From Candidatus Auribacterota bacterium (lineage in GTDB: Bacteria > Auribacterota > Tritonobacteria > UBA1439), in NCBI GenBank assembly GCA_026392035.1, contig JAPLCX010000059.1:82-64081 (forward strand): DNA of 64,000 bases, read 5' to 3'. Under the pieces are notes generated by a model, which had not been told where the DNA came from, did not search any database, and saw only the letters and a program-made list of their open reading frames with translations. The translations under genes and the position numbers were made by a program. Shown in pieces: positions 2,946 through 64,000 of this stretch. Every line of letters begins with the position of its first letter. Position 1 is the first letter of the stretch.

Positions 2946-5246
2946 CTAGGGTTGTAAATTTAGAGTCGAGAACATCGATGCTATGTCTTCGTCTTTAGTC
3001 ACTTCATCCTGACGGGATTCACTTGAAGAGAAATCGACATCGTCGTCACTTCTGGAGCTGTCTTGCTCTCGTTCATCAGCATGCTCTCTTATTGCAGCTA
3101 TATCTGCCTCGATATCGAGTTTGACAACCTTTGAAAGCGACTCCAGAGCTTCCGCCTCTTCGCGCAAGGCATCCGCATCAAGATCAGCATAGTCGGACGC
3201 GACGCTTTCAGCGACCTCCTGAATAGTGGCGGCCACTCGATCCATCTTTTCATCCGGGAAAAGTCCCGGGCGTGACTGCACGAGTCTGCACAAGGGCCGA
3301 AGGTCATCCGCCCACCGTGAGCCAACAAGCAACCCGTCGATAGCCTTTTCCATGAACGGCTCCGTCCATCTGCGGAAATCATCATCGGTAAGTGTTGTCA
3401 AGACATCGACAAGATCGGCTAGGCCGTCTCTATCGAATTCTTTTTTGGCGATGCGTGACTCAATTAGCGGAAAAGTCTCGCGTACAAATGAAAGAAGAGG
3501 TTTATGAGCATCCGCAGCGATCTCAGCAAATAGCGCGAGTCGTGACTCAATGGCATGCGGCCAGCGTTCTCTACTATCAACATTCCCTCTTCGCATGTTG
3601 ATCACGCGACACGGTTCTCCCGAAAGCAAACGGCGGAACATTTGCTCGGCCGTCTTTGAGTTGGCCTGGATAAGACCATACAGAAGCGGGCGCCGGTCAC
3701 GCCATGCCCAGAGGGAATCAAGTTGCTCGTAAAACACAACTGACAGAAACAACAAAGTGAACTCCGCATCGCTTGCCAAGAGATACTTTTTTACAAAATC
3801 AGCCACGGAGGGATTCTGAAAGCGAACCAGTATCTCCGCGCCCTCCTGATTATAAGAAAGAAAGTCACCCTCTAGCTCCTTGAGAGCGCTACGATAGTCC
3901 TGCGGCCCGATGGTTGCGGCATACTTTTTTGCATAGGCCAAGTTGTATGACTGATAAGCCTTCTCGGCGTCGCGTATGAAACACTGATGAGGCATGCTGG
4001 CCAGTACTAGCAGCAGGTTTCGGGCAGCCTGCGATAGCTGGTTGCTAAAAGCGTGTTCCCATAGGGCCAAAGGGTTTTCCATGCTGTTCATGAAGAACTC
4101 TATGTATCGAGCCGGCGGGACATCTCGGAGACGCGCGAACTCTGTCAAGAGTTGCACAATGCGGGGGCTATAGTTTCTGTGGTCAATGATCCGCAAATAG
4201 TTTTTGTCGGCCAGAATAGAGGCGCGATACTGAGTGGGCAAGGCGGAGAAGTAAATGTGGTTGAATAAGATGCGCGCCCGATTCATCCGCGTATACTTCG
4301 CAAGATCCACAATGCATTTCTGCGCGGTAAAGCCTTCTCGATTTAGTTTTTCATATTGCTGATATGCCTGCCGAAGGACGTATTCACGCGTTGTCAGAAT
4401 AAGCTTAATGCCGGTGGTCTTACGAATAGCATGAATAAAGTCGATGATACGTTGGTCTTCATTCTTGCGGAGCTTCTCCGAGAAGGATGTTTGTCCAAGA
4501 AAGTCGTCGTAGTAGAATACACGCCTTGTCTCGGGCGCCTTGAACTCCCACGCTTCAGCGATGTCTTCGCTGACCTTAATGACTTCGAAACCCGCGCGGC
4601 TATAGTGGAGAATAAGCATCTCCGCAAGGATGGTCTTTCCGATTCCAGGGATTCCGGCAATGATGCAGAAGTTGTCATGCTCGAGAATGTGGGCGGCTTC
4701 ATCAAAGCTCTCATTCTGAACATATAGCTTCGCATGCTCGCGAATTCTGTCCAACTCATGATTTGAGAAGTTCCTGACGGCCGCGTGGAGTACTTCTTCA
4801 AGCAGAGGAAGGCTAAATAACCACAGCTTGATTGTCTTACGTTCGACCTGCTCGAACTTACCGAGCAGATTGTTTAGATCGTCCTTGCCATAGACGTCAT
4901 CGGCGCATTTGATGAAAGGGTGAAGTGCCCGAACGATTTCGTCCTTCTTGGCCGGGTTCAATGGCACGGACGTAGCCACAATGTAACGCTCGGGCTTGAT
5001 CCGAGCCAGTTTAGGTAGTTCGTTGGTCGCTAGAACATGCAGAAGTGCATCGTAGCCCGATTCAACGTAGTGCTTACACTGGACGATCAGGTTGTTCTTG
5101 GCGTTGCGGGAATGACGGAAGTCTATGCCGCCGTCTCTGCCAGTGGTGAAAGACTGAAGTGTAAGGCCGAGTTCCTCCTGCAGTAGATCTCGAACGACTA
5201 CCTCAAAGTCAACTGGTGATAAGGTTCTGAAATCGTAGTTTGGCAT
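2946..5246 (-). CDS. Mrr-like PD-(D/E)xK nuclease domain fused to a STAND (NB-ARC/AP-ATPase-like) P-loop NTPase with a helical C-terminal region; candidate antiviral STAND (Avs-like) protein
   Basis: The true start is the ATG at 5246 (MPNYDFRTL...). The ORF-track N-terminus (MGFSGADARTLRAFAPPRVPPW...) is read-through into the upstream repeat. The N-terminal domain matches the Mrr catalytic fold: FEVVVRDLL...TGRDGGIDFR...IVQCKHY. Walker A is GIPGIGKT and Walker B is VFYYDDFLGQT. A sensor-1-like motif LILTTRE follows. About 450 aa of helical sequence lies downstream. The protein is 767 aa. Confidence 0.75.
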   Translation of the reverse strand: MPNYDFRTLSPVDFEVVVRDLLQEELGLTLQSFTTGRDGGIDFRHSRNAKNNLIVQCKHYVESGYDALLHVLATNELPKLARIKPERYIVATSVPLNPAKKDEIVRALHPFIKCADDVYGKDDLNNLLGKFEQVERKTIKLWLFSLPLLEEVLHAAVRNFSNHELDRIREHAKLYVQNESFDEAAHILEHDNFCIIAGIPGIGKTILAEMLILHYSRAGFEVIKVSEDIAEAWEFKAPETRRVFYYDDFLGQTSFSEKLRKNEDQRIIDFIHAIRKTTGIKLILTTREYVLRQAYQQYEKLNREGFTAQKCIVDLAKYTRMNRARILFNHIYFSALPTQYRASILADKNYLRIIDHRNYSPRIVQLLTEFARLRDVPPARYIEFFMNSMENPLALWEHAFSNQLSQAARNLLLVLASMPHQCFIRDAEKAYQSYNLAYAKKYAATIGPQDYRSALKELEGDFLSYNQEGAEILVRFQNPSVADFVKKYLLASDAEFTLLFLSVVFYEQLDSLWAWRDRRPLLYGLIQANSKTAEQMFRRLLSGEPCRVINMRRGNVDSRERWPHAIESRLALFAEIAADAHKPLLSFVRETFPLIESRIAKKEFDRDGLADLVDVLTTLTDDDFRRWTEPFMEKAIDGLLVGSRWADDLRPLCRLVQSRPGLFPDEKMDRVAATIQEVAESVASDYADLDADALREEAEALESLSKVVKLDIEADIAAIREHADEREQDSSRSDDDVDFSSSESRQDEVTKDEDIASMFSTLNLQP

Positions 5247-5262
5247 CTCTTTTCCCGTGGCC

Positions 5263-5396
5263 AACAACGGAATTGAGCGGCGATCCCGCCAAGGCGGGAC
5301 GCGGGGAGGAGCGAACGCCCGAAGCGTTCGCGCATCCGCGCCGGAAAAGCCCAATTGTCAAGGATAAAGATTTGACCCCCAAACCTCCCGTATGTC
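5263..5396. repeat. structured intergenic repeat, copy 3
   Basis: AACAACGGAATTGAGCGGCGATCCCGCCAAGGCGGGACGCGGGGAGGAGCGAACGCCCGAAGCGTTCGCGCATCCGCGCCGG, followed by the AAGCCCAATTGTCAAGGATAAAGATTTGACCCCCAAACCT module. The hairpin GCGAACGC-CCGAA-GCGTTCGC carries compensatory changes relative to copy 2. Confidence 0.65.
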
Positions 5397-5469
5397 CCGA
5401 TCCAGGTGATGAACTCTATATGATTGTCGCAAAATCGGCTTTTCTCATCTTTTACGCCCAACGTTGCTT

Positions 5470-6474
5470 TCACCGGCGGCGCGCTAGCGGCGTCCGGTGG
5501 AAGGCATGGTTGGGACGTTTTTCCATCGTCTTCCGAATCTGATACTTCACCTCAGGCTCATGCACGGCAGGGAACTCATCCATCCACGACAAATCCTTCC
5601 CAATAACCAATTCCTCCATTGTCGCATGATGCGTATTTCTCATGGGAATAAGACGCATTTGAAACCCATGTCTTCGGGCCATTGTCTTGACTTCTTCCGC
5701 GTTATCGTAGGTTATCAAGAAATCACCCCTCAACGACTCGCACACCGTAAACAATCGCTCATGGTCGATCTCGCAGTGGGTGTACAACCGCCTCCCAGCT
5801 TTCTTTCCACCAGCCGTATATGGAGGATCTATGAAATAGACTGCATGGCGGTTCGCTGCAAACTCCTGAATGACTTTTAACCCGTCATCACATCGGAAAT
5901 CAATTCTCGTTGCAACGTGGTTGAGGTCCGAGAGCCTCCTGGCGAGCGTCGCCGGGTACCAGCGAGAACGGATACCTTTCCCGTTCTCTCCGTACTTAAT
6001 GAATCCGGAACCATTGGCAAGAATTCCTCCATGGAGCGTTCGATTCTTAAGAATCGTCTGAAACGCTTTCTCTCGTCTTGTCTTCGGAGTTCTCGATAGT
6101 TCCTGTACAACGGATTCCTTGTTCAGGTCGAACGCAAGGATATGATTGGCCAGCCAGCCCGCGTCGCCATTGACCACCGTTTCCCATACTGCTGCGATTT
6201 CGTCGTCCAATTCGACCATCACTGCTTTCTGCACAAGATTCTCAAAGACAGCCGTAAGGCTGATAATTCCACCGCCAGCGAACGGCTCGACTAATATGCC
6301 AGGCTTCGAATACATGCGCGCGATCCAGTGCCGAAACGTTGGCACAAACCATGTCTTGCCGCCGGGGTAGCGGAAGGGGCTTCGTTGCGGGACCGATGCT
6401 ACATTGACCGGCCTCAGTGCTTCTATTTCTTCACGGAGCTCAGGGAATAAGAGGGATTGCTTGGGGATAGCCAT
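5470..6474 (-). CDS. DNA adenine (N6) methyltransferase, Dam / D12-class
   Basis: It carries FRYPGGK (motif I region) and the catalytic FIDPPY (DPPY). The protein is 334 aa. It ends 2 bp before the start of the endonuclease ORF. The C-terminal approximately 20 aa may be read-through toward the repeat. Confidence 0.8.
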   Translation of the reverse strand: MAIPKQSLLFPELREEIEALRPVNVASVPQRSPFRYPGGKTWFVPTFRHWIARMYSKPGILVEPFAGGGIISLTAVFENLVQKAVMVELDDEIAAVWETVVNGDAGWLANHILAFDLNKESVVQELSRTPKTRREKAFQTILKNRTLHGGILANGSGFIKYGENGKGIRSRWYPATLARRLSDLNHVATRIDFRCDDGLKVIQEFAANRHAVYFIDPPYTAGGKKAGRRLYTHCEIDHERLFTVCESLRGDFLITYDNAEEVKTMARRHGFQMRLIPMRNTHHATMEELVIGKDLSWMDEFPAVHEPEVKYQIRKTMEKRPNHAFHRTPLARRR

Positions 6475-6475
6475 G

Positions 6476-7384
6476 TCAGAATGGCCTCTCGATAGTCTTG
6501 TTTACGGGTGGAGTTTCGATCTGTTCATCCAGCTTTTCCTGAAGCAGTTTCACGAAGTCGTTGATCTTCCCTGGCGCGGGAGTTGTGATAGACATCAAGG
6601 CTGGCTCGAATTGGGTGAACACTTCATCGATCTTGGTTAGCTTGAGCCTCTCTTGTCCGCCTTCCTTGGTAATCTTGAGGTCGTAGATCAGCCAGGCAAT
6701 TTCGGCTTTTGATTTGCTCACCTTTGCCAACGGGGGGAGTGTCTCAAAAAAGCTCTTGTTCAAGGCGACAGCGGTCTTCTTCTGCCAGGAATGCAGAATC
6801 CCGCCCTTGAAGAGAAGTTGTGGTGCCAGGCGTTTACGGGAAGATGAAAGATAGTCCGGGCGCGGATAGTTCGGTTGGGTTGACCAATCCATTTGTGCGT
6901 GCGTCTTCGGGTTCTTCATATAGTACTCAAAGGGATCGCGCACGTTGCCGGATATGTAAACAGCCTGAACCTCGAGGGCGCCGAAGTCGAAGACCTTACC
7001 ATTCTCGTCGTAAGCGACGAGGACAACGTCAATGTTACCGGCTGACTTTCCATGCACATCGTTAAGTCTCACTTCTGTCAAGGAACTCCACCGGGTGCCA
7101 TCGTCAAAGAAAAAGGATGCGGCATCGTCAGCGATGAGCCAGTCTTCGCGGAACCGTATCGGGCATGTTATCACGGTACTTCTCTCGTGCAAGACACTAC
7201 ACACGCCGAGAGGATTCTTGGCCTTGTCTTTCGTGCAGTTTGGCACTTTGTTGTTGAAGGGACACAGACGCCGAGACCGGTATCTGTCTGCCTTGGCCGA
7301 GTGATCGGTCAAGAGATGGCCAAAGACCTCTGCAAGTGGTTGTACGGGTTCTTTCATAGTTTCTCTCAATTCACTGCTTTCCAT
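6476..7384 (-). CDS. type II restriction endonuclease, NotI-family fold (PD-(D/E)xK with an N-terminal Cys4 metal-binding region)
   Basis: The region AEVFGHLL...CPFNNKVPNC...GVCSV...CPIRF...GALEVQAVYISGN...LLFKGGILHSWQKK is similar to NotI (AEFFGH...CPF...GVCVV...CP.R...GVLEIQTMDFHGS...FKRTFYQMAYKF). This comparison is from memory. The start is uncertain: ATG at 7384 (MESSEL) or 7357 (MKEPVQ). The ORF-track N-terminus is repeat read-through. Confidence 0.6.
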   Translation of the reverse strand: MESSELRETMKEPVQPLAEVFGHLLTDHSAKADRYRSRRLCPFNNKVPNCTKDKAKNPLGVCSVLHERSTVITCPIRFREDWLIADDAASFFFDDGTRWSSLTEVRLNDVHGKSAGNIDVVLVAYDENGKVFDFGALEVQAVYISGNVRDPFEYYMKNPKTHAQMDWSTQPNYPRPDYLSSSRKRLAPQLLFKGGILHSWQKKTAVALNKSFFETLPPLAKVSKSKAEIAWLIYDLKITKEGGQERLKLTKIDEVFTQFEPALMSITTPAPGKINDFVKLLQEKLDEQIETPPVNKTIERPF

Positions 7385-7457
7385 AGGAGGATCATACTGA
7401 ATTCGTAACTCCTTTTCAACCTCAACTCCCCCTACCTTCGGGATTCTCCCTTGTCCC

Positions 7458-7577
7458 AACGATGGAATTGAGCGGCGCTCCCGCCAAGGCGGGACGCGGG
7501 GAGGAGCGAACGCGAGCGCGCGCGCATCCGCGCCGCCGGGCGCGGACAACACATGATAGCCGCTCAATTCCTTCGTT
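7458..7577. repeat. structured intergenic repeat, copy 4 (complete element with terminal inverted repeats)
   Basis: The left arm is AACGATGGAATTGAGCGGCG and the right arm is GCCGCTCAATTCCTTCGTT. That gives a 19-bp inverted repeat with one mismatch, ending AAC...GTT. The internal hairpin is GCGAACGC-GAGC-GCGCGCGC. It lies immediately 3' of brnA. Confidence 0.65.
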
Positions 7578-55612: not shown

Positions 55613-58600
55613 GTGATTATTTTGCACGCTGGATACAGTGGTGGGCATTTGCTTCTCTGGGGAGAGACACACGCTAAAAACGAATATTTCCCTGCGAAGC
55701 TGCGGAGGCAAAAGCCCAAAGCGCTCCCTTATGACGCCCGGTCTGATATGGTTGTCACCGCTCTTAGACAAGCCGGCGTCTGTTCTACGATCAGGAAAAG
55801 TCAGGTAGCTACGGTAGTCTCTTGGATTCCGACAGTCGATCATGCTCCTCTGCCCTCCAGTGCTATTATTGCGCAATTGCCCCATTCACATAAAAAGCCT
55901 GTATTGAACCCATGGAATGTCTCGGTAATTCGGCTGACCAGAGAACAGATGGTTGAAATCCTCTGCGCCTGCGTTGGAAAACAAAACCTGGCGCCCGGCC
56001 TAATTGTTGGGAGCGACTTGGCATTCTGGGCAAGGGCTATGCGCTTTGCAGGCGCGCTTATCACAAGACAGAAATATCTTCCCGCGATAACCGAAGACAA
56101 CGGGACATGCTATGCACAGTGGAAGCCTGTCTTCACCGGTGCCGACGTTGATATTCTAGAAAAGCTTGCCAAAGCCATGCCGGCGGCCGCGCGCGCGTTG
56201 ACGCAGGGAGATAATTCGCCGCCAAATGAATCCTCACGTTCAACGCTTGCTGATTTCACTGGAGAAATTGTTGATCATCTAGTCCGCGCTCCATGTTCTT
56301 CTTCTGTAATGATACAAAAACGAGGGAGGAGGAGGAAGGTCCCAACTTTTTCCAGCATGCACGATCAGTGGTTGCATGCGCTGCGTTCGCCTGATGGGCT
56401 TATGGAGGGCGATGAAGGCGAGTTGGCTCAGCTTAAGGCCCAGGTGTGCGATTGGCAACGGCTGATATCTCTTCCTACATCGGCGCCTTTTCGGCTTTGT
56501 TTCCGGTTGGAAGAGCCCGGGATCAAGATGGAGGGGACGGAAATGGTTCAAAGCGCGGATGAGGCCTGGTATGTACGTTACCTGCTTCAGTCGGTCAATG
56601 ATCCAAGCCTGCTCATTCCGGCAACAGAGGCATGGAGCACTACCGGTAAACAAAAGTCGCTTCTCGATCTCACTGGATTTGACCATCGCGAATACGTATT
56701 GTTGTCATTGGGGCAGGCATCGATGATTTGCCCGCGTATAGAAGGAAGTTTAAGAACCTCTATTCCCGGCGGTTACGAACTCGATACCGCAGAGGCATAT
56801 AAATTTCTCACAGAAAAAGCGATGGTGTTGGAGGAGGCGGGGTTTAAGATTATGCTGCCGGCATGGTGGACCCGCAAGGGAACGAAGCTGCGTCTGAAGG
56901 CCAGCGCAAATGCGAGGAGCCCAGTGATGACAGGGCACGGTCGACTGTCACTTGAAAGCGTAGTTGAGTTCGACTGGGAAGTCGCATTGGGCGGTGAGAA
57001 GATATCCCTGGTGGAACTCCAGGAACTCGCAAAACTCAAGGCGCCGCTTATCAGATTTCGCGGCCAATGGGTACAAATGACCGCTGAGGAGATAGCGGCG
57101 GCCCGCGACTTCTGGAAGGAAAAGGCTTCAGGCCGAGCAACCGTGCATGAAATAATCCGGATGGCTTTGGGGGCGGCACGAACTCCGAGTTCTATTGATT
57201 TCGAAGGGGTAAGGGCAACGGGTTGGCTTGCAGATCTTTTGAAACAGTTGGAAGAGGGCACGCCTTTCGAAGAGCTGCCTCACCCGGAAAGTTTCCAAGG
57301 GAGACTGCGCCCTTATCAAATAAAGGGTTATTCGTGGTTGAGTTTCTTGCGGCGATGGGGACTGGGGGCATGCCTGGCCGATGACATGGGATTGGGAAAA
57401 ACCGTGCAGACACTTGCGCTTATCCAGAGAGACTGGCTGGCGAATAGCCATGGCCCGGTGCTGCTTGTATGTCCCATGTCTGTCATTGCCACTTGGCTGA
57501 AGGAGGCCGGCTGTTTCACTCCTGAGTTGCCTATAATGGTCCATCACGGCGCCAGCAGATTAAAAAGCGAGGTATTTGAAGCAGAGGCGGGGAAGCACGC
57601 CATGGTAGTTACCAGTTACGCTTTGCTCCATCGTGATTTTGAGATATTCAAGGGTGTGCCGTGGGCGGGGATGGTTTTGGACGAGGCGCAGAATATCAAG
57701 AATCCAGAAACCAAGCAGGCTCGAGCTGCGCGAGCCATTGGATCGAGCTATCGAATCGCGCTCACCGGTACGCCTGTCGAAAACAATGTTGGTGACCTTT
57801 GGTCTATAATGGAATTCTTGAATCCCGGATTGCTTGGCACACAGACCGAATTCAAAAGAACTTTTTTTATCCCTATCCAGGCCGATCGCGACCAGGAGGC
57901 CATGCAGAGCCTTAAGCGCCTGACGGGGCCGTTCATCCTCAGGCGCCTCAAGGCAGACAAAGCGATAATCGCGGATCTGCCCGAGAAAATGGAAATGAAG
58001 GTGTTCTGCACTTTGACAAAAGAGCAGGCCTCTCTTTATGCTGCGGTGGTTGATGATGCTTCCAATGCCCTTGACTCGGTCGAAGGGATCGAGCGCAAGG
58101 GAGTGATCCTGGCAACACTGTCCAAGCTCAAGCAGGTATGCAATCATCCGAGGCAGTTTCTTGGCGACAATTCCGAAATTCATGGGCGGTCGGGCAAGCT
58201 CTCCCGCTTGACTGAAATGCTGGAGGAAGTCATGGAGGTTGGGGACAGAGCGCTGATATTTACGCAATTCGCCGAGATGGGCGAAATCCTTAAGTGCCAC
58301 CTTCAGGAATGGTTTGGTCGTGAGGTGCTCTTCCTGCACGGCGGTGTGCCGAAAGCGCGGCGTGACCGAATGGTTGAACGCTTCCAGACAGATGCCGGAG
58401 GACCGTCTATCTTCATCCTCTCACTCAAGGCCGGCGGCTTCGGGTTGAATCTACAGCGCGCCAATCATGTTTTTCACTTCGACCGTTGGTGGAATCCTGC
58501 GGTGGAGAACCAGGCAACCGACCGTGCGTTTCGTATCGGTCAAAAACGGAATGTTCAGGTCCATAAGTTTCTCTGCGCCGGGACGCTGGAAGAGAAGATT

Positions 58601-58732
58601 GATGAGATGATCGAGAGCAAGAAAGAGATTGCTCAGGCCGTGGTTGGAGTGGGGGAGGGTTGGCTGACGGAGCTTTCAACTAACGAACTCAGGGAATTCT
58701 TCAAGCTTCGGAAAGAAGCCTGGGGGGATTAA
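55613..58732 (+). CDS. SNF2-family DEAD/DEAH-box helicase with an approximately 520-aa N-terminal SNF2-associated region
   Basis: Motif I is LADDMGLGKT. Motif II is DEAQNIKN. LTGTPVENNVGDLWSIMEFLNPG is present. The C-terminal helicase domain has QATDRAFRIGQKRNVQVHKF. The start is a GTG after GGGAGAG. Confidence 0.85.
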   Translation: MIILHAGYSGGHLLLWGETHAKNEYFPAKLRRQKPKALPYDARSDMVVTALRQAGVCSTIRKSQVATVVSWIPTVDHAPLPSSAIIAQLPHSHKKPVLNPWNVSVIRLTREQMVEILCACVGKQNLAPGLIVGSDLAFWARAMRFAGALITRQKYLPAITEDNGTCYAQWKPVFTGADVDILEKLAKAMPAAARALTQGDNSPPNESSRSTLADFTGEIVDHLVRAPCSSSVMIQKRGRRRKVPTFSSMHDQWLHALRSPDGLMEGDEGELAQLKAQVCDWQRLISLPTSAPFRLCFRLEEPGIKMEGTEMVQSADEAWYVRYLLQSVNDPSLLIPATEAWSTTGKQKSLLDLTGFDHREYVLLSLGQASMICPRIEGSLRTSIPGGYELDTAEAYKFLTEKAMVLEEAGFKIMLPAWWTRKGTKLRLKASANARSPVMTGHGRLSLESVVEFDWEVALGGEKISLVELQELAKLKAPLIRFRGQWVQMTAEEIAAARDFWKEKASGRATVHEIIRMALGAARTPSSIDFEGVRATGWLADLLKQLEEGTPFEELPHPESFQGRLRPYQIKGYSWLSFLRRWGLGACLADDMGLGKTVQTLALIQRDWLANSHGPVLLVCPMSVIATWLKEAGCFTPELPIMVHHGASRLKSEVFEAEAGKHAMVVTSYALLHRDFEIFKGVPWAGMVLDEAQNIKNPETKQARAARAIGSSYRIALTGTPVENNVGDLWSIMEFLNPGLLGTQTEFKRTFFIPIQADRDQEAMQSLKRLTGPFILRRLKADKAIIADLPEKMEMKVFCTLTKEQASLYAAVVDDASNALDSVEGIERKGVILATLSKLKQVCNHPRQFLGDNSEIHGRSGKLSRLTEMLEEVMEVGDRALIFTQFAEMGEILKCHLQEWFGREVLFLHGGVPKARRDRMVERFQTDAGGPSIFILSLKAGGFGLNLQRANHVFHFDRWWNPAVENQATDRAFRIGQKRNVQVHKFLCAGTLEEKIDEMIESKKEIAQAVVGVGEGWLTELSTNELREFFKLRKEAWGD

Positions 58733-58838
58733 TATGACCAGTGACAAGAGGAGCGGGTATGACAGAGAATGGGCTGAAGAGAAAAAAAGGTACCGCGTGA
58801 ATATGGAAACGATTCGAATCTGAAAAGAGGAGAGCACT

Positions 58839-59756
58839 ATGTACTGGCGCTATGGCTATTTCACACCGTCAAAACCGCGTGCGGTAAGAGGCGGTATTAA
58901 GGCGCAATCAGGCCGAAGAGCCGTTGGTAAAAATTGGTGGGCAGAGCGCTGGAATGCCGTGTTGGAAGAACTTTATGCGGGTAACAGGTTGACGCGGGGC
59001 AGATCCTATGCTCGCCGGGGACAGGTTTTGCGCATTGATATTGAAAAAGGGATGGTAAAGGGGCAGGTGCAGGGCTCCCGCTCCAGACCATATGATATCT
59101 CTATCAGGGTAAAAGTTATGTCAAAACCCGGCTGGAAAAAAGTGGTAAAGACGCTCTCGGAAAAATCCCTTTTCACCGCGAAGCTTTTAGCCGGTGAGAT
59201 GCCTCAGGATATTGAAGAGGTTTTTAAAAAGGCCGGATTATCGCTTTTCCCTGAGAGAGGCAATGACCTAAAAACGGAGTGCTCGTGCCCGGACTGGGCG
59301 AATCCATGCAAACACATTGCGGCTGTCTATTATCTGCTGGGCGAAGAATTTGATCGAGACCCTTTTTTGATTTTCAAACTGCGAGGGATGAGCAGAAAAG
59401 AATTCGTTAATCTCTTGAGCCACATCAGCAAAACAGCCGGCGCACCCAAGGCGTGCGAGATGGCCAAAAGCCTGGATGGCCATGCGGAAGTTTCCTCAAC
59501 AGATGAACCGATCTCGTCAGATCTCAAAACCTACTGGGACGGGGGGGAGATACCGGATGATTTATTCGGAGAGGTTTCGATTCCACGAGTTCCGGCCGCT
59601 CTGCCTAAGCGATTGGGCAGTTTTCCATTTTGGCGCGGTGAAGAACGATTCCTCGAAGCTATCGAGCCGATTTACGAAGCTGCGTCCCCCCGCGGTCTTG
59701 ATACCTATATCGGCGAATATACTATGGCGGTCGCTGAGGATAATGCGCCGACGTGA
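58839..59756 (+). CDS. SWIM zinc-finger protein
   Basis: CxCxnCxH is present as ECSCPDWANPCKHIAAVYYLL. It follows the SNF2 gene by 107 bp on the same strand. Confidence 0.75.
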   Translation: MYWRYGYFTPSKPRAVRGGIKAQSGRRAVGKNWWAERWNAVLEELYAGNRLTRGRSYARRGQVLRIDIEKGMVKGQVQGSRSRPYDISIRVKVMSKPGWKKVVKTLSEKSLFTAKLLAGEMPQDIEEVFKKAGLSLFPERGNDLKTECSCPDWANPCKHIAAVYYLLGEEFDRDPFLIFKLRGMSRKEFVNLLSHISKTAGAPKACEMAKSLDGHAEVSSTDEPISSDLKTYWDGGEIPDDLFGEVSIPRVPAALPKRLGSFPFWRGEERFLEAIEPIYEAASPRGLDTYIGEYTMAVAEDNAPT

Positions 59757-60267: not shown

Positions 60268-61668
60268 ATGAGAGCATTCACGTGGATTCCGTTATACAAG
60301 GAACTGGCAGACAAGCTGTTGGCGTACCGGGACCGCCAGGGCGACCTCATTGCGATTCTGAAGGAACTCAAAGACCAGGGACTCCCGGTCATAGGACTTA
60401 CCGACAAGGACAAGAGGGGAAAAGCGGTTCCGCTTGAGGCAATAGACCCGTTCACGTTCTTTGCCTCATTCAATCGCAAGGCCACGGATCAAAACCGCCG
60501 AGCTATCTTGACTATGATCAAGGAACGACTGCAACTGCAGGCGGGAGTCCCTGCCGATTTCGACGGCATCCCGATCATGTCTCCCATGCAGTCATGGTTT
60601 TTTGCCTTTTATCCTGAGAGGAAACCTGACGATATAACAGCCTTATGGGCATTCGCTGAGGCCATTGTCAGGCGCGCGCCGGAGGATGTTACCCCGGAAC
60701 TGTTCAACCGATGTCTCGAAGTCGCTTACGTGAAAGTCCCCAACCTCACCATGGGCATGTTCTGGATGCGACCAGAAATATATCTGGCACTGGACAGACG
60801 AAACCGCAAGCTTCTTGACGAACGCGGCGTCGCGCACGAGGTGAAAGACTGGGCATCGTACCTTCAGTTCCTAAAGAACGCTCGGTCGCTCGTACCGGAA
60901 CCGCACTATGAATTCTCACACGCAGCATACGCGGGCGAGTCTGGTAGGAGATACTGGGTATTCCAGGGCAACCCGAAGATCTACGACGTAGTGGGCGCAC
61001 TTCGGGCTGGGGAGGTGAAAACTTGGCGAGTGAACCAGCGCATGAAGGACATTCATCCTGGTGACAAGGTTATTGTCTGGGTCACCGGCGAAGCCGCCGG
61101 CTGCTACGCACTGGCAACGGTCATGTCCGAAGTTTGCACTGTTGCAGAAGATGCCAAGGAGGCTTCCTACTACCGTAAAGGGCCTGGCAAGAGTACTCCG
61201 TTTACGGGTGTCAAGCTCCGCATTGATACGAAGTTGTGGGATAACCCGGTCTCAAAGGCAGACATTGCCGGGCAGCCGGCGTTCCGTGATTTTCCGGCCG
61301 GTCGACAAGGGACAAATCTGGCCGCCACAAAGGCCTACTACGACGGCATTCTGGCGCTGGCCAGAGGGAGGACGGAAATGCGCTACTGGCTCTACGCTCC
61401 TGGACGCTATGCAAAGTATTGGGATGAATGTTGGCAGAAAGGCATCATGCTATTTGGTGCCGACGAGCTTTCCGACCTGAGCGCCTTTTCCGACAAGGCG
61501 GCGATCGAAGAAGCGTTCAAGAAGGCAAACCGGTTGAAGCACCGTCCAACCAACGACGCGCGTGCCGCGTGGGAGTTCTCGCACGTCCTCAGTCCCGGGG
61601 ACATCGTCATAGCTAAGAAAGGCGCGCGGCAATACGTTGGCTATGGCGTTGTTTCCGGGCCCGTATAG
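60268..61668 (+). CDS. modified-base reader protein: N-terminal McrB-associated domain, an EVE (PUA-like) domain, and the N-terminal half of a second EVE domain
   Basis: The first EVE domain spans RYWVFQGNPKIYDVVGALRAGEVKTWRVNQ...GDKVIVWVTGEAAGCYALATVMSEV...GVKLRIDTKLWDNPVS. The second EVE begins RYWLYAPGRYAKYWDECWQKG...SPGDIVIAKKGARQYVGYGVV and appears to continue in the mcrB reading frame. Confidence 0.6.
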   Translation: MRAFTWIPLYKELADKLLAYRDRQGDLIAILKELKDQGLPVIGLTDKDKRGKAVPLEAIDPFTFFASFNRKATDQNRRAILTMIKERLQLQAGVPADFDGIPIMSPMQSWFFAFYPERKPDDITALWAFAEAIVRRAPEDVTPELFNRCLEVAYVKVPNLTMGMFWMRPEIYLALDRRNRKLLDERGVAHEVKDWASYLQFLKNARSLVPEPHYEFSHAAYAGESGRRYWVFQGNPKIYDVVGALRAGEVKTWRVNQRMKDIHPGDKVIVWVTGEAAGCYALATVMSEVCTVAEDAKEASYYRKGPGKSTPFTGVKLRIDTKLWDNPVSKADIAGQPAFRDFPAGRQGTNLAATKAYYDGILALARGRTEMRYWLYAPGRYAKYWDECWQKGIMLFGADELSDLSAFSDKAAIEEAFKKANRLKHRPTNDARAAWEFSHVLSPGDIVIAKKGARQYVGYGVVSGPV

Positions 61669-63139
61669 ACACGAGGCCGAACGGACGACCTACCGCAATG
61701 TGAGACCTGCGAGATGGGTCAAAAAAGGGGAATGGCAGAAGAATGAAGGGGGGCCGATCGTCCAGAAAGCCCTGACCGACATCACGAAGTACCCGGAATA
61801 CGTCCAGGAACTGCGGGAGTTGATAGGGATTGAAGACACTGCGATTGGCAACCGAACACCACTGCCGCTGAACATCATCCTCTACGGCCCCCCGGGGACG
61901 GGGAAGACGTACACGCTCCGCAATAAGTACATGGAGCAATTCACAGAGCGCGCGGCCGCGCTGAGCAGGGAGGATTTCGCTGCGGATCTAGTCGCGGACC
62001 TGGCATGGTGGCAGGTCATCACGATGGTAATGCTGGATCTCAAGACCAGTAATGTCAGCGGCATTCTTGCGCACCCCCTCATGGAGGCACGGATCCGGCG
62101 CGCCAGCAACCGCACACCGCGGGCAGCGATCTGGGCCCACCTGCAGATGCACACCAAGACAGACTGCCCAGAGGTGAAGTATGCCAAACGGTACGAGCCG
62201 CTCCTGTTTTCGAAGGATGCCGAATCGGTCTGGTCGATCGACGAGAAACTCGCGACCGAGGAGGCGCCTGACCTCGTCGAGGCCCTGGAACGCTACCGTG
62301 GCTATACGCCGGATCAAGGCGCGGTGATCAAGCGCTATGAGTTCACCACCTTCCACCAGTCGTACAGTTACGAGGATTTCGTCGAGGGCATCAAACCCGT
62401 CATGTCCGAGGAAGTGGCGGAGACATTGGCCTATGAAGTCAAGCCGGGCATCTTCAAAACCATGGTGCAGCGAGCCCTAGCAGACCCCAACCACGACTAC
62501 GCACTCCTCATTGACGAGATCAATCGCGGCAACGTTGCCAACATCTTCGGGGAGCTGATCACGCTCATCGAAGATGATAAGCGCCAAGGCACCCCGAATG
62601 AGCTACGCGCCCGCTTACCCTACTCGCGTGAGGAATTCGCTGTGCCGAAGAACCTGTACATCATCGGAGCAATGAATACCGCGGATCGCAGCGTCGAGGC
62701 GCTGGATACCGCCCTGCGCCGACGGTTCGCATTCGTTGCCATCCCGCCGCAACCGGAATTCATTAAGCAACCGGCGAATCTGGATGTGGATCTCCGGAAA
62801 CTTCTCGGCGTGATCAACGCGCGGATCGAGAAGCTCTTGGACAAGGATCACTGCATCGGCCACTCGTACTTCATGGGCATAGCCGCAAGCAGCGACCCTC
62901 TGGCCGAGTTGCGGAATGTCTTCGCGACGAAGATCCTGCCGCTGATGGAGGAGTACTTCTATGGCGATCCAGCCAAGATCGGCATGGTCCTGGGTGAACG
63001 GTTCGTATCGCGCAAAGACGAGGCCATCGAATGGGCAGAGGGTGATTGGGGAATGGACGAGTTCGAGGAGCGCCATGTGTACACCTTGCAGGATCCCAGG
63101 ACAATGAAGGACGGGGACTTCCGCGCCGTCTATGAGTGA
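61637..63139 (+). CDS. mcrB: McrB-family AAA+ GTPase (type IV modification-dependent restriction); probably the C-terminal part of an EVE-McrB fusion
   Basis: Walker A is NIILYGPPGTGKTYT. The McrB signature is ALLIDEINRGNVANIFGELITLIEDDKR. YIIGAMNTADRS is also present. The ORF-track start is a TTG that overlaps the upstream gene by 32 nt. The encoded N-terminus YRHEAERTTYRNVRPARWVKKGEW looks like the tail of the preceding EVE domain. Confidence 0.8.
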   Translation: MAMALFPGPYRHEAERTTYRNVRPARWVKKGEWQKNEGGPIVQKALTDITKYPEYVQELRELIGIEDTAIGNRTPLPLNIILYGPPGTGKTYTLRNKYMEQFTERAAALSREDFAADLVADLAWWQVITMVMLDLKTSNVSGILAHPLMEARIRRASNRTPRAAIWAHLQMHTKTDCPEVKYAKRYEPLLFSKDAESVWSIDEKLATEEAPDLVEALERYRGYTPDQGAVIKRYEFTTFHQSYSYEDFVEGIKPVMSEEVAETLAYEVKPGIFKTMVQRALADPNHDYALLIDEINRGNVANIFGELITLIEDDKRQGTPNELRARLPYSREEFAVPKNLYIIGAMNTADRSVEALDTALRRRFAFVAIPPQPEFIKQPANLDVDLRKLLGVINARIEKLLDKDHCIGHSYFMGIAASSDPLAELRNVFATKILPLMEEYFYGDPAKIGMVLGERFVSRKDEAIEWAEGDWGMDEFEERHVYTLQDPRTMKDGDFRAVYE

Positions 63140-64000
63140 CGTCATCCAAGTGTTCGAGCACACCACGCTCCCGGTGGGAGGGCAGTTCACGTCCACCCGC
63201 TTTGCCCGCCTCGTGCAATACAACGAACGTCACGGGAACCGCTTCTTTGACGTCGGTCACAACCGTATCCATTTCCGGAACTGTGTCGGCGTCATCCAGG
63301 TCGGCAATCTGACCATTGAGATCCTGCCCAAGGCCGACAAGACGCCGGATTCGCCCGCTCAGAAGCGGAAATGGCAGCGTGCTCTGGTCGAGATGCTGCG
63401 ACAGTCAGGCTTCATTCGATTGGCCTCGGTGTCAGACGCCAGACTGAGGCTGCGCGCATCCTCGCTACTGGACATCTACTTCGAGTCATTTCTAGCGGAG
63501 GTCGAGGATCTCGTGCACCACGGACTGGTCCGAAAGTATCGCCAGACCCGCGGGAATCTCCCTGCCCTGAAGGGGCGCATCCTCTTTCAACAGCATCTCT
63601 CCCAGAACCTCGTCCACCGGGAACGGTTCTTCACTGAGCACGTATTCTATGACCGCAACAACCGGTTCAACCAGGTCCTGCGCGTCGCCTTGGATGTGCT
63701 TGCTCGGGTGTCCGCCAACCCTCACCTGGTTGCCCTCGCACGCAGCCTCTCGATGACCTTCCAAGACGTGGATGACATTGCTGTGAGCGAACGGACTTTC
63801 ACCCGGCTTCCTCACACGCGAAACACGGAACGCTACCGCCGGGCGCTGCAACTCGCCCGCCTGATCATCTTGAACTACAGCCCGGACGTTCGAAGCGGCA
63901 GAGAGGATGTCCTGGCGATCCTGTTCGACATGAACTGCCTGTTTGAACGCTTTATCTATGCCCAACTGAAAAGAGCGGAGGCGAGGCAGCCCTCACACAA
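63132..64000 (+). CDS. mcrC: McrC-family subunit (partial; continues past the window end)
   Basis: The ATG overlaps the mcrB stop (ATGAGTGA). The N-terminus MSDVIQVFEHTTLPVGG...NRIHFRNCVGVIQVGNLTIEILPK is typical of McrC. There is no stop before position 64000. Confidence 0.7.
   Translation, partial: MSDVIQVFEHTTLPVGGQFTSTRFARLVQYNERHGNRFFDVGHNRIHFRNCVGVIQVGNLTIEILPKADKTPDSPAQKRKWQRALVEMLRQSGFIRLASVSDARLRLRASSLLDIYFESFLAEVEDLVHHGLVRKYRQTRGNLPALKGRILFQQHLSQNLVHRERFFTEHVFYDRNNRFNQVLRVALDVLARVSANPHLVALARSLSMTFQDVDDIAVSERTFTRLPHTRNTERYRRALQLARLIILNYSPDVRSGREDVLAILFDMNCLFERFIYAQLKRAEARQPSH

Follow-up and report, generated by a model that had tools for sequence, protein, structure and literature searches.

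The two adjacent proteins MCX6339404.1 and MCX6339405.1 are the halves of one frameshifted mcrB gene, and their annotation should therefore be changed. We believe that the break is probably a recent pseudogenising 1-nt insertion in the chromosomal McrBC system of a Candidatus Auribacterota MAG. The window, which is the whole 64,000-nucleotide stretch of DNA that was analysed, carries the 5' fragment (ORF A) at 60268..61668 in frame 1 and the 3' fragment with the GTPase motor (ORF B) at 61643..63139 in frame 2; these and all features of the mcrBC locus below lie on the + strand. ORF A encodes 466 aa, ends in ...GYGVVSGPV*, and was deposited at NCBI as MCX6339404.1, "EVE domain-containing protein". 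ORF B encodes 498 aa from ATG 61643 and was deposited as MCX6339405.1, "AAA family ATPase". The earlier note had placed the opening of the mcrB frame at 61613, with an overlap of about 50 nt with the upstream ORF; the opening was the same in our analysis, and the overlap measured 56 nt. Positions 61651-61668 read gtttccgggcccgtatag, and across the junction the mcrB frame reads ...LAMALFPGPYRHEAERTTYRNVRPARWVKKGEW. The frameshift site is GGGCCCG at 61657-61663, which has one nucleotide more than all in-frame homologues, and the frame-1 stop TAG lies just past it at 61666-61668. Because of this insertion the locus lacks a single intact reader-motor ORF, and deleting one base within 61657-61663 gives an ORF of 956 aa rather than the approximately 966 aa that had been proposed. 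The domain order of the repaired protein is DUF8425 (helical), EVE, DUF8426 and McrB GTPase, and the 3' end of the gene overlaps mcrC. The Pfam matches of the exact ORFs are DUF8425, EVE and DUF8426 for ORF A and AAA_5 and McrB_lid for ORF B, followed by McrBC for McrC.

More than 20 homologues, full-length and 945-973 aa long, aligned to the repaired 956-aa protein with no gap over the junction, and their identities reached 81%. Alignment A1 contained 25 sequences, namely the repaired protein and 24 full-length homologues; one example (P0001) reads GYGVVSGPYKHEAERTTYRNVR at the junction. Judged from these aligned sequences, the collinearity of the repaired protein with the 24 homologues is far beyond chance, and it bears out the proposal that the two ORFs are pieces of a single mcrB gene with a 1-nt frameshift at G3C3. 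Had the orthologues also consisted of two overlapping genes with a conserved stop, this proposal would have failed, but they are single ORFs. The fused architecture was common to most of the best 120 matches. There were dozens of full-length homologues, and DUF8426 matched 7,225 protein cluster representatives; EVE-McrB fusions with extra domains have also been described (PMC7641849). The suggestion that the locus encodes an unusual sensor array was thus not upheld, and the DUF8425-EVE-DUF8426-McrB architecture is not rare but common in metagenomes. The family is abundant there, yet uncharacterised. To our knowledge, the architecture has no experimentally characterised member, and we know of no biochemical activity in the subfamily.

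Three causes of the break had been offered, namely a pseudogenising mutation, a sequencing error and a programmed frameshift, and only the first of them stood. An error of sequencing or assembly at the GC-rich G3C3, with the real gene intact, would agree with the fact that short-homopolymer indels are a common error class and that the repaired protein is otherwise perfect. However, the exact 466-aa truncated ORF was present, with identical sequence, on 8 contigs that come from separate assemblies of several SRR and ERR runs, as well as in the NCBI MAG. Three of these contigs (L001-L003) matched the window at 100% identity along 8-9.6 kb, junction and GGGCCCG site included, and the frameshift-bearing contigs all belong to the same clone. 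A collection of 15 billion proteins did not contain the exact repaired protein, that is, the intact allele, and when JGI metagenome contigs were scanned by exact pattern, the junction was found in neither form, with the extra base or lacking it. Because several separately assembled contigs share the identical sequence, we consider random sequencing error very unlikely.

Programmed +1 ribosomal frameshifting (tRNA-Pro, CCC to CCG) was also weighed, as was phase-variable switching at a contingency locus that regulates restriction. A +1 slip on CCC-G in the candidate slip sequence TCCGGGCCCGTATAG recovers exactly the ancestral ...SGPY..., and a stop codon lies two codons 3' of CCC-G. However, any 1-nt insertion in a run yields such an apparent slippery site by construction. 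The slippery site and the two-frame layout were not conserved, since all 24 aligned homologues are single ORFs with varying codons; close homologues have TCG GGT CCA TAT, TCT GGC CCC TAC or TCT GGA CCC TAT at the site, which are non-slippery. The runs are only G3 and C3, whereas contingency tracts typically have at least 7 repeats, and the search for Rfam elements and stimulatory motifs gave none. Since the homologues keep the frame with codons that vary at the site, and since G3C3 falls short of a typical contingency tract, we regard regulated frameshifting as highly improbable. With random sequencing error and programmed frameshifting both unlikely, a real pseudogenising mutation is left.

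At columns that are at least 95% conserved among the other 24 sequences, no substitution is private to the repaired protein. Since no private changes were found at conserved columns and mcrC is intact, the break appears to be recent. The complete absence of secondary decay fits continued function of the split gene equally well. We considered that the fragments might work as a free reader and a motor, either re-associating so that the orphan hairpin completes the YTH-like barrel or acting as a regulator pair resembling that of McrB-L with McrB-S. The split gene carries no further disabling mutations, mcrC is translationally coupled to it, and ATG 61643, which sits 23 nt 5' of the ORF A stop, would permit reinitiation; moreover, a reader-less McrB-S is made naturally by E. 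coli (PMC3874153). On the other hand, ATG 61643 has no Shine-Dalgarno sequence at a normal distance, the split structure was found in no orthologue, the two further split copies (L092 and L093) are interrupted elsewhere in the gene, and an untethered reader has no known route to direct McrC. We think it unlikely that the split gene is functional, and we favour the recent pseudogenising insertion.

The break falls inside the second reader module. The first about three quarters of DUF8426 is read in frame 1 at 61372..61662 (aa 369-465), and the remainder with the terminal beta-hairpin is read in frame 2 at 61664..61768 (repaired aa 466-500). The earlier note had described the upstream gene as holding one full EVE domain and half of a second one; the full EVE domain was found, but the partial module amounts to 97 of about 125 residues. 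As had been proposed, the module is completed only by mcrB-frame residues, which form its final long beta-hairpin (repaired aa 477-490). In the AF2 model (pLDDT 95) this hairpin corresponds to module residues 109-122, and the modelled fold needs it, against the possibility that the module is complete without the frame-2 residues. Past the break lie the invariant W483 and the near-invariant Y466, G487 and W489 (module W115, Y98, G119 and W121). The domain is truly split, because it is the mcrB frame that supplies the last beta-hairpin and the conserved tryptophans in it.

The array had been called "EVE-EVE", and this name holds for its first member. Module 1 at 60943..61371 (aa 226-368) matched Pfam EVE (PF01878) over aa 228-353 with 43.4 bits against a gathering threshold of 23 (E 4.4e-11); a single-sequence search with this domain found nothing. 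Module 2 (aa 369-500 of the repaired protein) was not recognised as EVE, with no Pfam-A match even at E<=10, and its listed Pfam family is DUF8426. Comparison of module 2 with the EVE module by hhalign gave a probability of 35% over 29 columns only. The top Foldseek matches of module 2 were YTHDF2, YTHDC1, MRB1 and Mmi1, followed by PH1033 and MJECL36, with E values of 2e-3 to 2e-2 (none <=1e-3), TM scores of about 0.45-0.51 and probabilities of about 1.0; its profile search against PDB sequences gave nothing significant. According to the predicted model, module 2 most resembles YTH domains inside the PUA-like superfamily. Given the lack of a Pfam EVE match, the YTH-like model and the weak hhalign result, "EVE plus YTH-like, both PUA-superfamily" is a more accurate description of the array. 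A YTH-like PUA-superfamily module leads to a concrete ligand hypothesis. W374, W385, F437, Y466, W483 and W489, chosen by conservation, are candidate residues of an aromatic cage for the methylated base.

The N-terminal domain at 60268..60942 (aa 1-225) is mostly helical and has a precomputed Pfam match to DUF8425 (PF28527) for the exact ORF; this family and DUF8426 (PF28530) are listed for the 466-aa ORF A and likewise for full-length homologues. A literature search for DUF8425 and DUF8426 found nothing, and a profile search of the N-terminal domain against PDB sequences gave nothing significant. Its AF2 model (pLDDT 96) had only weak Foldseek matches in the PDB, all of them HhH-GPD DNA glycosylases (E 0.1-1, TM 0.25-0.34).

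Walker A GPPGTGKT at 61886..61909 and Walker B LLIDEINRG are both invariant in alignment A1 and agree with the AAA+ patterns GxxGxGKT and DExx; Walker B lies within the AAA_5 core at 62333..62728 (PF07728, E 3e-15). The NxxD signature that defines McrB GTPases (PMC11090510) was found as MNTADRS (N-T-A-D) at 62672-62692 and is invariant in 25/25 sequences. Between Walker A and the FHQSYSYEDF motif there is an insertion of about 133 aa at 61934..62332 (repaired aa 556-688), for which a profile search against PDB sequences found nothing significant. The NCBIfam model of E. coli-type McrB (NF008457) scored 143.9 bits against a cutoff of 637 and matched at profile positions 225-447 only. mcrC at 63132..64000 extends beyond the window end and matched PF10117 (McrBC) over its full length (E 3.8e-63). 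It directly adjoins mcrB, as an mcrC with DUF2357 plus PD-(D/E)xK does in McrBC systems, and its ATG and the mcrB stop overlap by 8 nt (ATGAGTGA). Contig L001, which is identical, contains the whole gene as an ORF of 422 aa.

As for the surroundings, we considered whether the upstream SNF2 and SWIM genes belong to the system, and rejected this, since the homologous McrBC loci are flanked by other genes. Scans for tRNA and Rfam families gave no match anywhere in the window, and scans for promoters and terminators gave no more than background. A D12-class adenine methyltransferase is encoded at 5470..6474, within a low-GC R-M island.

We believe that the locus is a Type IV (modification-dependent) McrBC restriction system in which a single polypeptide of 956 aa was the ancestral McrB. 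If it works like characterised McrBC, modified bases of foreign DNA would be bound by the N-terminal readers, the hexamer of the GTPase would associate with McrC and translocate, and cleavage would be the task of McrC. With the 1-nt insertion in GGGCCCG, the reader polypeptide would stop three codons into the wrong frame, within the YTH-like domain, and the motor would be encoded in another frame, with no complete reader. Any motor-only product that starts at ATG 61643 would be similar to McrB-S of E. coli, binding McrC and not DNA, and full-length protein would presumably be made solely by rare spontaneous +1 slippage on CCC-G. Most likely, restriction is lost or strongly reduced, as in a recent pseudogene. 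A bolder idea is that DUF8425-EVE-DUF8426 is a combinatorial multi-modification sensor (EVE of 5mC/5hmC type, YTH-like of m6A type, possibly with a glycosylase-like base-flipping helical domain), and that the frameshift was selected by a clash of the YTH-like reader with m6A written by the resident D12 methyltransferase, or that fragment complementation or CCC-G slippage makes the split tolerable; we regard it as doubtful. Taken alone, the frameshift is an ordinary loss of function, of interest only if it is tied to conflict with host methylation.

Studies have shown that EVE-McrB fusions occur in McrBC Type IV systems, often with additional N-terminal domains (Bell et al. 2020, PMC7641849; Bell et al. 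2024, PMC11090510). Like them, the present protein has EVE N-terminal to an NxxD GTPase, with an overlapping mcrC immediately 3'; unlike them, it has the extra DUF8425, the YTH-like DUF8426, the GTPase insertion and the frameshift. According to Hosford et al. 2020, as cited in PMC7641849, the N-terminal domain of Thermococcus gammatolerans McrB is YTH-like and binds m6A DNA. The predicted model suggests a similar fusion of a YTH-like PUA-superfamily reader to a McrB motor, whereas the module here is one of three readers. The top 50 Foldseek neighbours of module 2 did not include the T. gammatolerans domain, and module 2 had no detectable sequence similarity to any PDB chain. E. coli K-12 McrBC shares the GTP-dependent AAA+ motor (Walker A, Walker B and NxxD) and the McrC partner, and ORF B is McrB-S-like; in contrast, the reader here is not DUF3578/ADAM, and McrB-S, the biology of which is reviewed in PMC3874153, arises from an in-frame internal start, whereas ORF B arises from a frameshift. 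Natural mcrB frameshift alleles have been reported in B. cereus ATCC 10987 and 14579 (PMC4722110) and in C. jejuni CAMSA2002 (PMC8713573). As in those alleles, the frameshift here would inactivate mcrB while mcrC is kept, but those alleles belong to other McrB subfamilies and are broken at other positions.

The mcrB gene of the window is split into two reading frames. The upstream fragment (ORF A, 60268-61668, frame 1) encodes 466 aa ending in ...GDIVIAKKGARQYVGYGVVSGPV*, and the mcrB-frame ORF, which encodes the GTPase motor in frame 2, is open from 61613 to its stop at 63139, reads ...LAMALFPGPYRHEAERTTYRNVRPARWVKKGEW... and overlaps ORF A by 56 nt. The interruption string gtttccgggcccgtatag lies at 61651-61668. 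The earlier note described the sequence accurately and claimed that one gene had been split by a frameshift. One base was removed from GGGCCCG (61657-61663), and the resulting 956-aa repaired protein was used as a search query. The search retrieved many full-length homologues encoded by single ORFs (945-973 aa, 50-81% identity, 100% query coverage). In an alignment of 25 sequences, the repaired protein was collinear across the junction with zero gaps, the window reading GYGVVSGPY-RHEAERTTYRNVR and the homologue P0001 reading GYGVVSGPY-KHEAERTTYRNVR. Because serine 463 is compatible with frame 1 alone and tyrosine 466 with frame 2 alone, this alignment to EVE-McrB relatives, which the earlier note had proposed, places the extra nucleotide within GGGCCCG. 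Two overlapping genes in the orthologues would have spoken against a split gene; the orthologues are single ORFs, aligned gap-free over the junction, and the claim of one broken gene is borne out.

Precomputed Pfam matches of the exact ORFs gave the domain order DUF8425 (PF28527), EVE (PF01878), DUF8426 (PF28530), AAA_5 and McrB_lid (PF28529), followed by McrC (PF10117). A Pfam search placed EVE at ORF A residues 228-353 (E 4e-11) and AAA_5 in the downstream ORF. The DUF8426 module (module 2, repaired aa 369-500) had been read as a second EVE. With a threshold as loose as E<=10, a local Pfam-A copy still gave it no match, PDB sequences gave none either, and profile–profile comparison with the EVE module gave a probability of 35% over 29 columns only, around the GD-V...G-G-V motif. 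AlphaFold, given a 45-sequence alignment, modelled module 2 with confidence (pLDDT 95.2, pTM 0.87). The model's closest solved structures were YTH domains (YTHDF2, YTHDC1, MRB1, Mmi1, and YTHDC2) and archaeal PH1033 and MJECL36 (E 2e-3 to 2e-2, TM about 0.45-0.51), and the canonical EVE structure 1zce ranked 49 with partial coverage. Because a Pfam-A match was absent, EVE profile similarity was low and YTH structures were nearest, the model suggests that module 2 is YTH-like, within the PUA-like superfamily, and not a Pfam EVE; the PUA-like part of the earlier reading stands, and the EVE label gives way to DUF8426. This agrees with the remark that YTH-like domains of prokaryotes on McrB are hard to tell from EVE (PMC7641849). 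The mcrB frame encodes the model's long terminal beta-hairpin (segment residues 109-122, repaired aa 477-490), together with the invariant W483 and the near-invariant Y466, G487, and W489. On this model, therefore, the frameshift truly cuts module 2, which is finished only by mcrB-frame residues, as had been suggested. The DUF8426 part of ORF A (61378-61659, aa 371-464) also matched the N-terminus of the PADLOC candidate defence protein PDC-S02 (E 8e-8), and DUF8426 is therefore also in use outside McrB. The N-terminal DUF8425 domain (60268-60942) is mostly helical with a confident model (pLDDT 96.3). Its Foldseek neighbours, weak and non-significant, were all HhH-GPD DNA glycosylases (OGG1, MutY, and EndoIII; E 0.1-1, TM 0.25-0.34); the modelled resemblance is a lead, not a finding.

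The NCBIfam McrB match to the downstream ORF was partial and below threshold. Walker A GPPGTGKT, Walker B LLIDEINRG, and the McrB NxxD signature MNTADRS were invariant in the 25-sequence alignment. Between Walker A and the core lies a GTPase insertion of ~133 aa (61934-62332, repaired aa 556-688), which is kept in close homologues with invariant WW, HP, and C residues, is missing from some relatives, matched nothing in Pfam or among PDB sequences and may serve as an additional specificity module. The mcrC gene starts at 63132, overlapping the mcrB stop (ATGAGTGA); contig L001, which is identical, carries it in full as a 422-aa ORF matched full-length by PF10117 (E 4e-63).

Among the best 120 matches, the arrangements Nterm-EVE-mod2-motor, Nterm-mod2-motor, X-EVE-mod2-motor, mod2-EVE-motor, and Nterm-EVE-other-motor were found, so that by sequence comparison the modules are freely shuffled. 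The module 2 profile matched 7,225 cluster representatives at E<=1e-3 and 950 at E<=1e-30, and some matched proteins carried 2-4 copies (tandem DUF8426, e.g. P0140 and P0141). In the close homologues P0010-P0012 and P0015-P0017, an unrelated module of similar length occupies the place of DUF8426 (alignment A1, columns about 400-560). Reader cassettes appear to be freely exchanged. Full-length relatives occurred in MAGs of Desulfococcus, other deltaproteobacteria, Acidobacteriota, Bacteroidia, and Poriferihabitaceae. Divergence is faster in the reader domains than in the motor: identity to P0137 was 56% for the N-terminal domain, 64% for EVE, 66% for module 2 and 90% for the motor core. EVE-McrB has been described as the commonest EVE fusion among defence systems, "with additional domains often present" (PMC7641849), and McrB diversity has been surveyed (PMC11090510). 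Given the shuffled arrays, the abundance of module 2 and these known fusions, a multi-reader McrB is not unusual, contrary to the earlier note.

The window is chromosomal (alaS, trpE, rlmD, lepA, and lepB are present). Directly upstream of mcrB (55613-59756) are an SNF2-family helicase with DUF3670 (1039 aa; strong PADLOC ZorD/DpdE-like and NCBIfam SCO1167-family matches) and a SWIM zinc-finger protein (305 aa), which probably do not belong to the McrBC system, because related McrBC loci have different neighbours. A low-GC island on the minus strand (2946-7567; GC 0.43-0.52 versus 0.55-0.60 elsewhere) encodes an 801-aa Mrr_cat and nSTAND3 protein, a D12-class N6-adenine DNA methyltransferase (5470-6474) and a NotI-like restriction endonuclease (6476-7567), all on that strand. 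Since an m6A writer coexists with a YTH-like McrB, we speculate that the frameshift was possibly selected because of self-targeting conflict, consistent with the conflicts that PMC2993543 considers.

Sequencing error, programmed frameshifting and inactivating mutation had been offered as causes of the split. The exact 466-aa truncated protein was found on 8 public contigs, separately assembled from several runs (SRR20698649 and others, ERR15302223, and ERR15302182), and three of these were 100% identical to the window across 8.0-9.6 kb, junction included. Both split proteins likewise appear in NCBI, as MCX6339404.1 and MCX6339405.1, on a contig of 65,290 nt from a Candidatus Aureabacteria/Auribacterota MAG, and an exact look-up of the repaired protein among 15 billion proteins returned no match. 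All frameshift-carrying copies belong to one clone. Because the truncated ORF recurs in separate assemblies and in NCBI and the repaired protein is absent from that collection, random sequencing error is unlikely.

A programmed event is also unlikely. If tRNA-Pro slipped +1 on CCC-G, the ancestral sequence would be regained, but such an apparent slippery site arises from any 1-nt insertion into a run. The SGPY codons vary among close homologues (TCG GGT CCA TAT, TCT GGC CCC TAC, or TCT GGA CCC TAT), all of them in frame; the G and C runs at the junction are three each, far below contingency-tract length, and no Rfam element was found in the whole window. Two further split copies of this McrB subfamily, on contigs L093 (1571-5700) and L092 (5001-8384), break elsewhere, and in L093 mcrC is split too. 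These two splits could be either independent pseudogenes or long-read indel errors.

The repaired protein had zero private substitutions at columns at least 95% conserved among the other 24 sequences, and intact homologues had 0-51. Because conserved columns are unchanged and mcrC is intact, either the frameshift is recent relative to the divergence of the lineage or selection still acts on the split gene. In E. coli, McrB's N-terminal domain holds recognition, and McrB-S, which lacks a reader, binds both GTP and McrC, fails to bind DNA and interferes with restriction (PMC3874153, PMC2993543). By analogy with McrB-S, restriction at the split locus would probably be lost or strongly reduced. 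Reinitiation at the annotated start ATG 61643 could give an McrB-S-like motor, because the ORF A stop lies 23 nt further downstream; a normal Shine-Dalgarno sequence for it was not found, the nearest purine-rich stretch (~21 nt upstream) being too distant. We believe that an ordinary recent inactivating insertion is the most likely cause of the split. Frameshifted mcrB alleles with mcrC retained, as at this locus, have been reported in B. cereus and C. jejuni (PMC4722110, PMC8713573).
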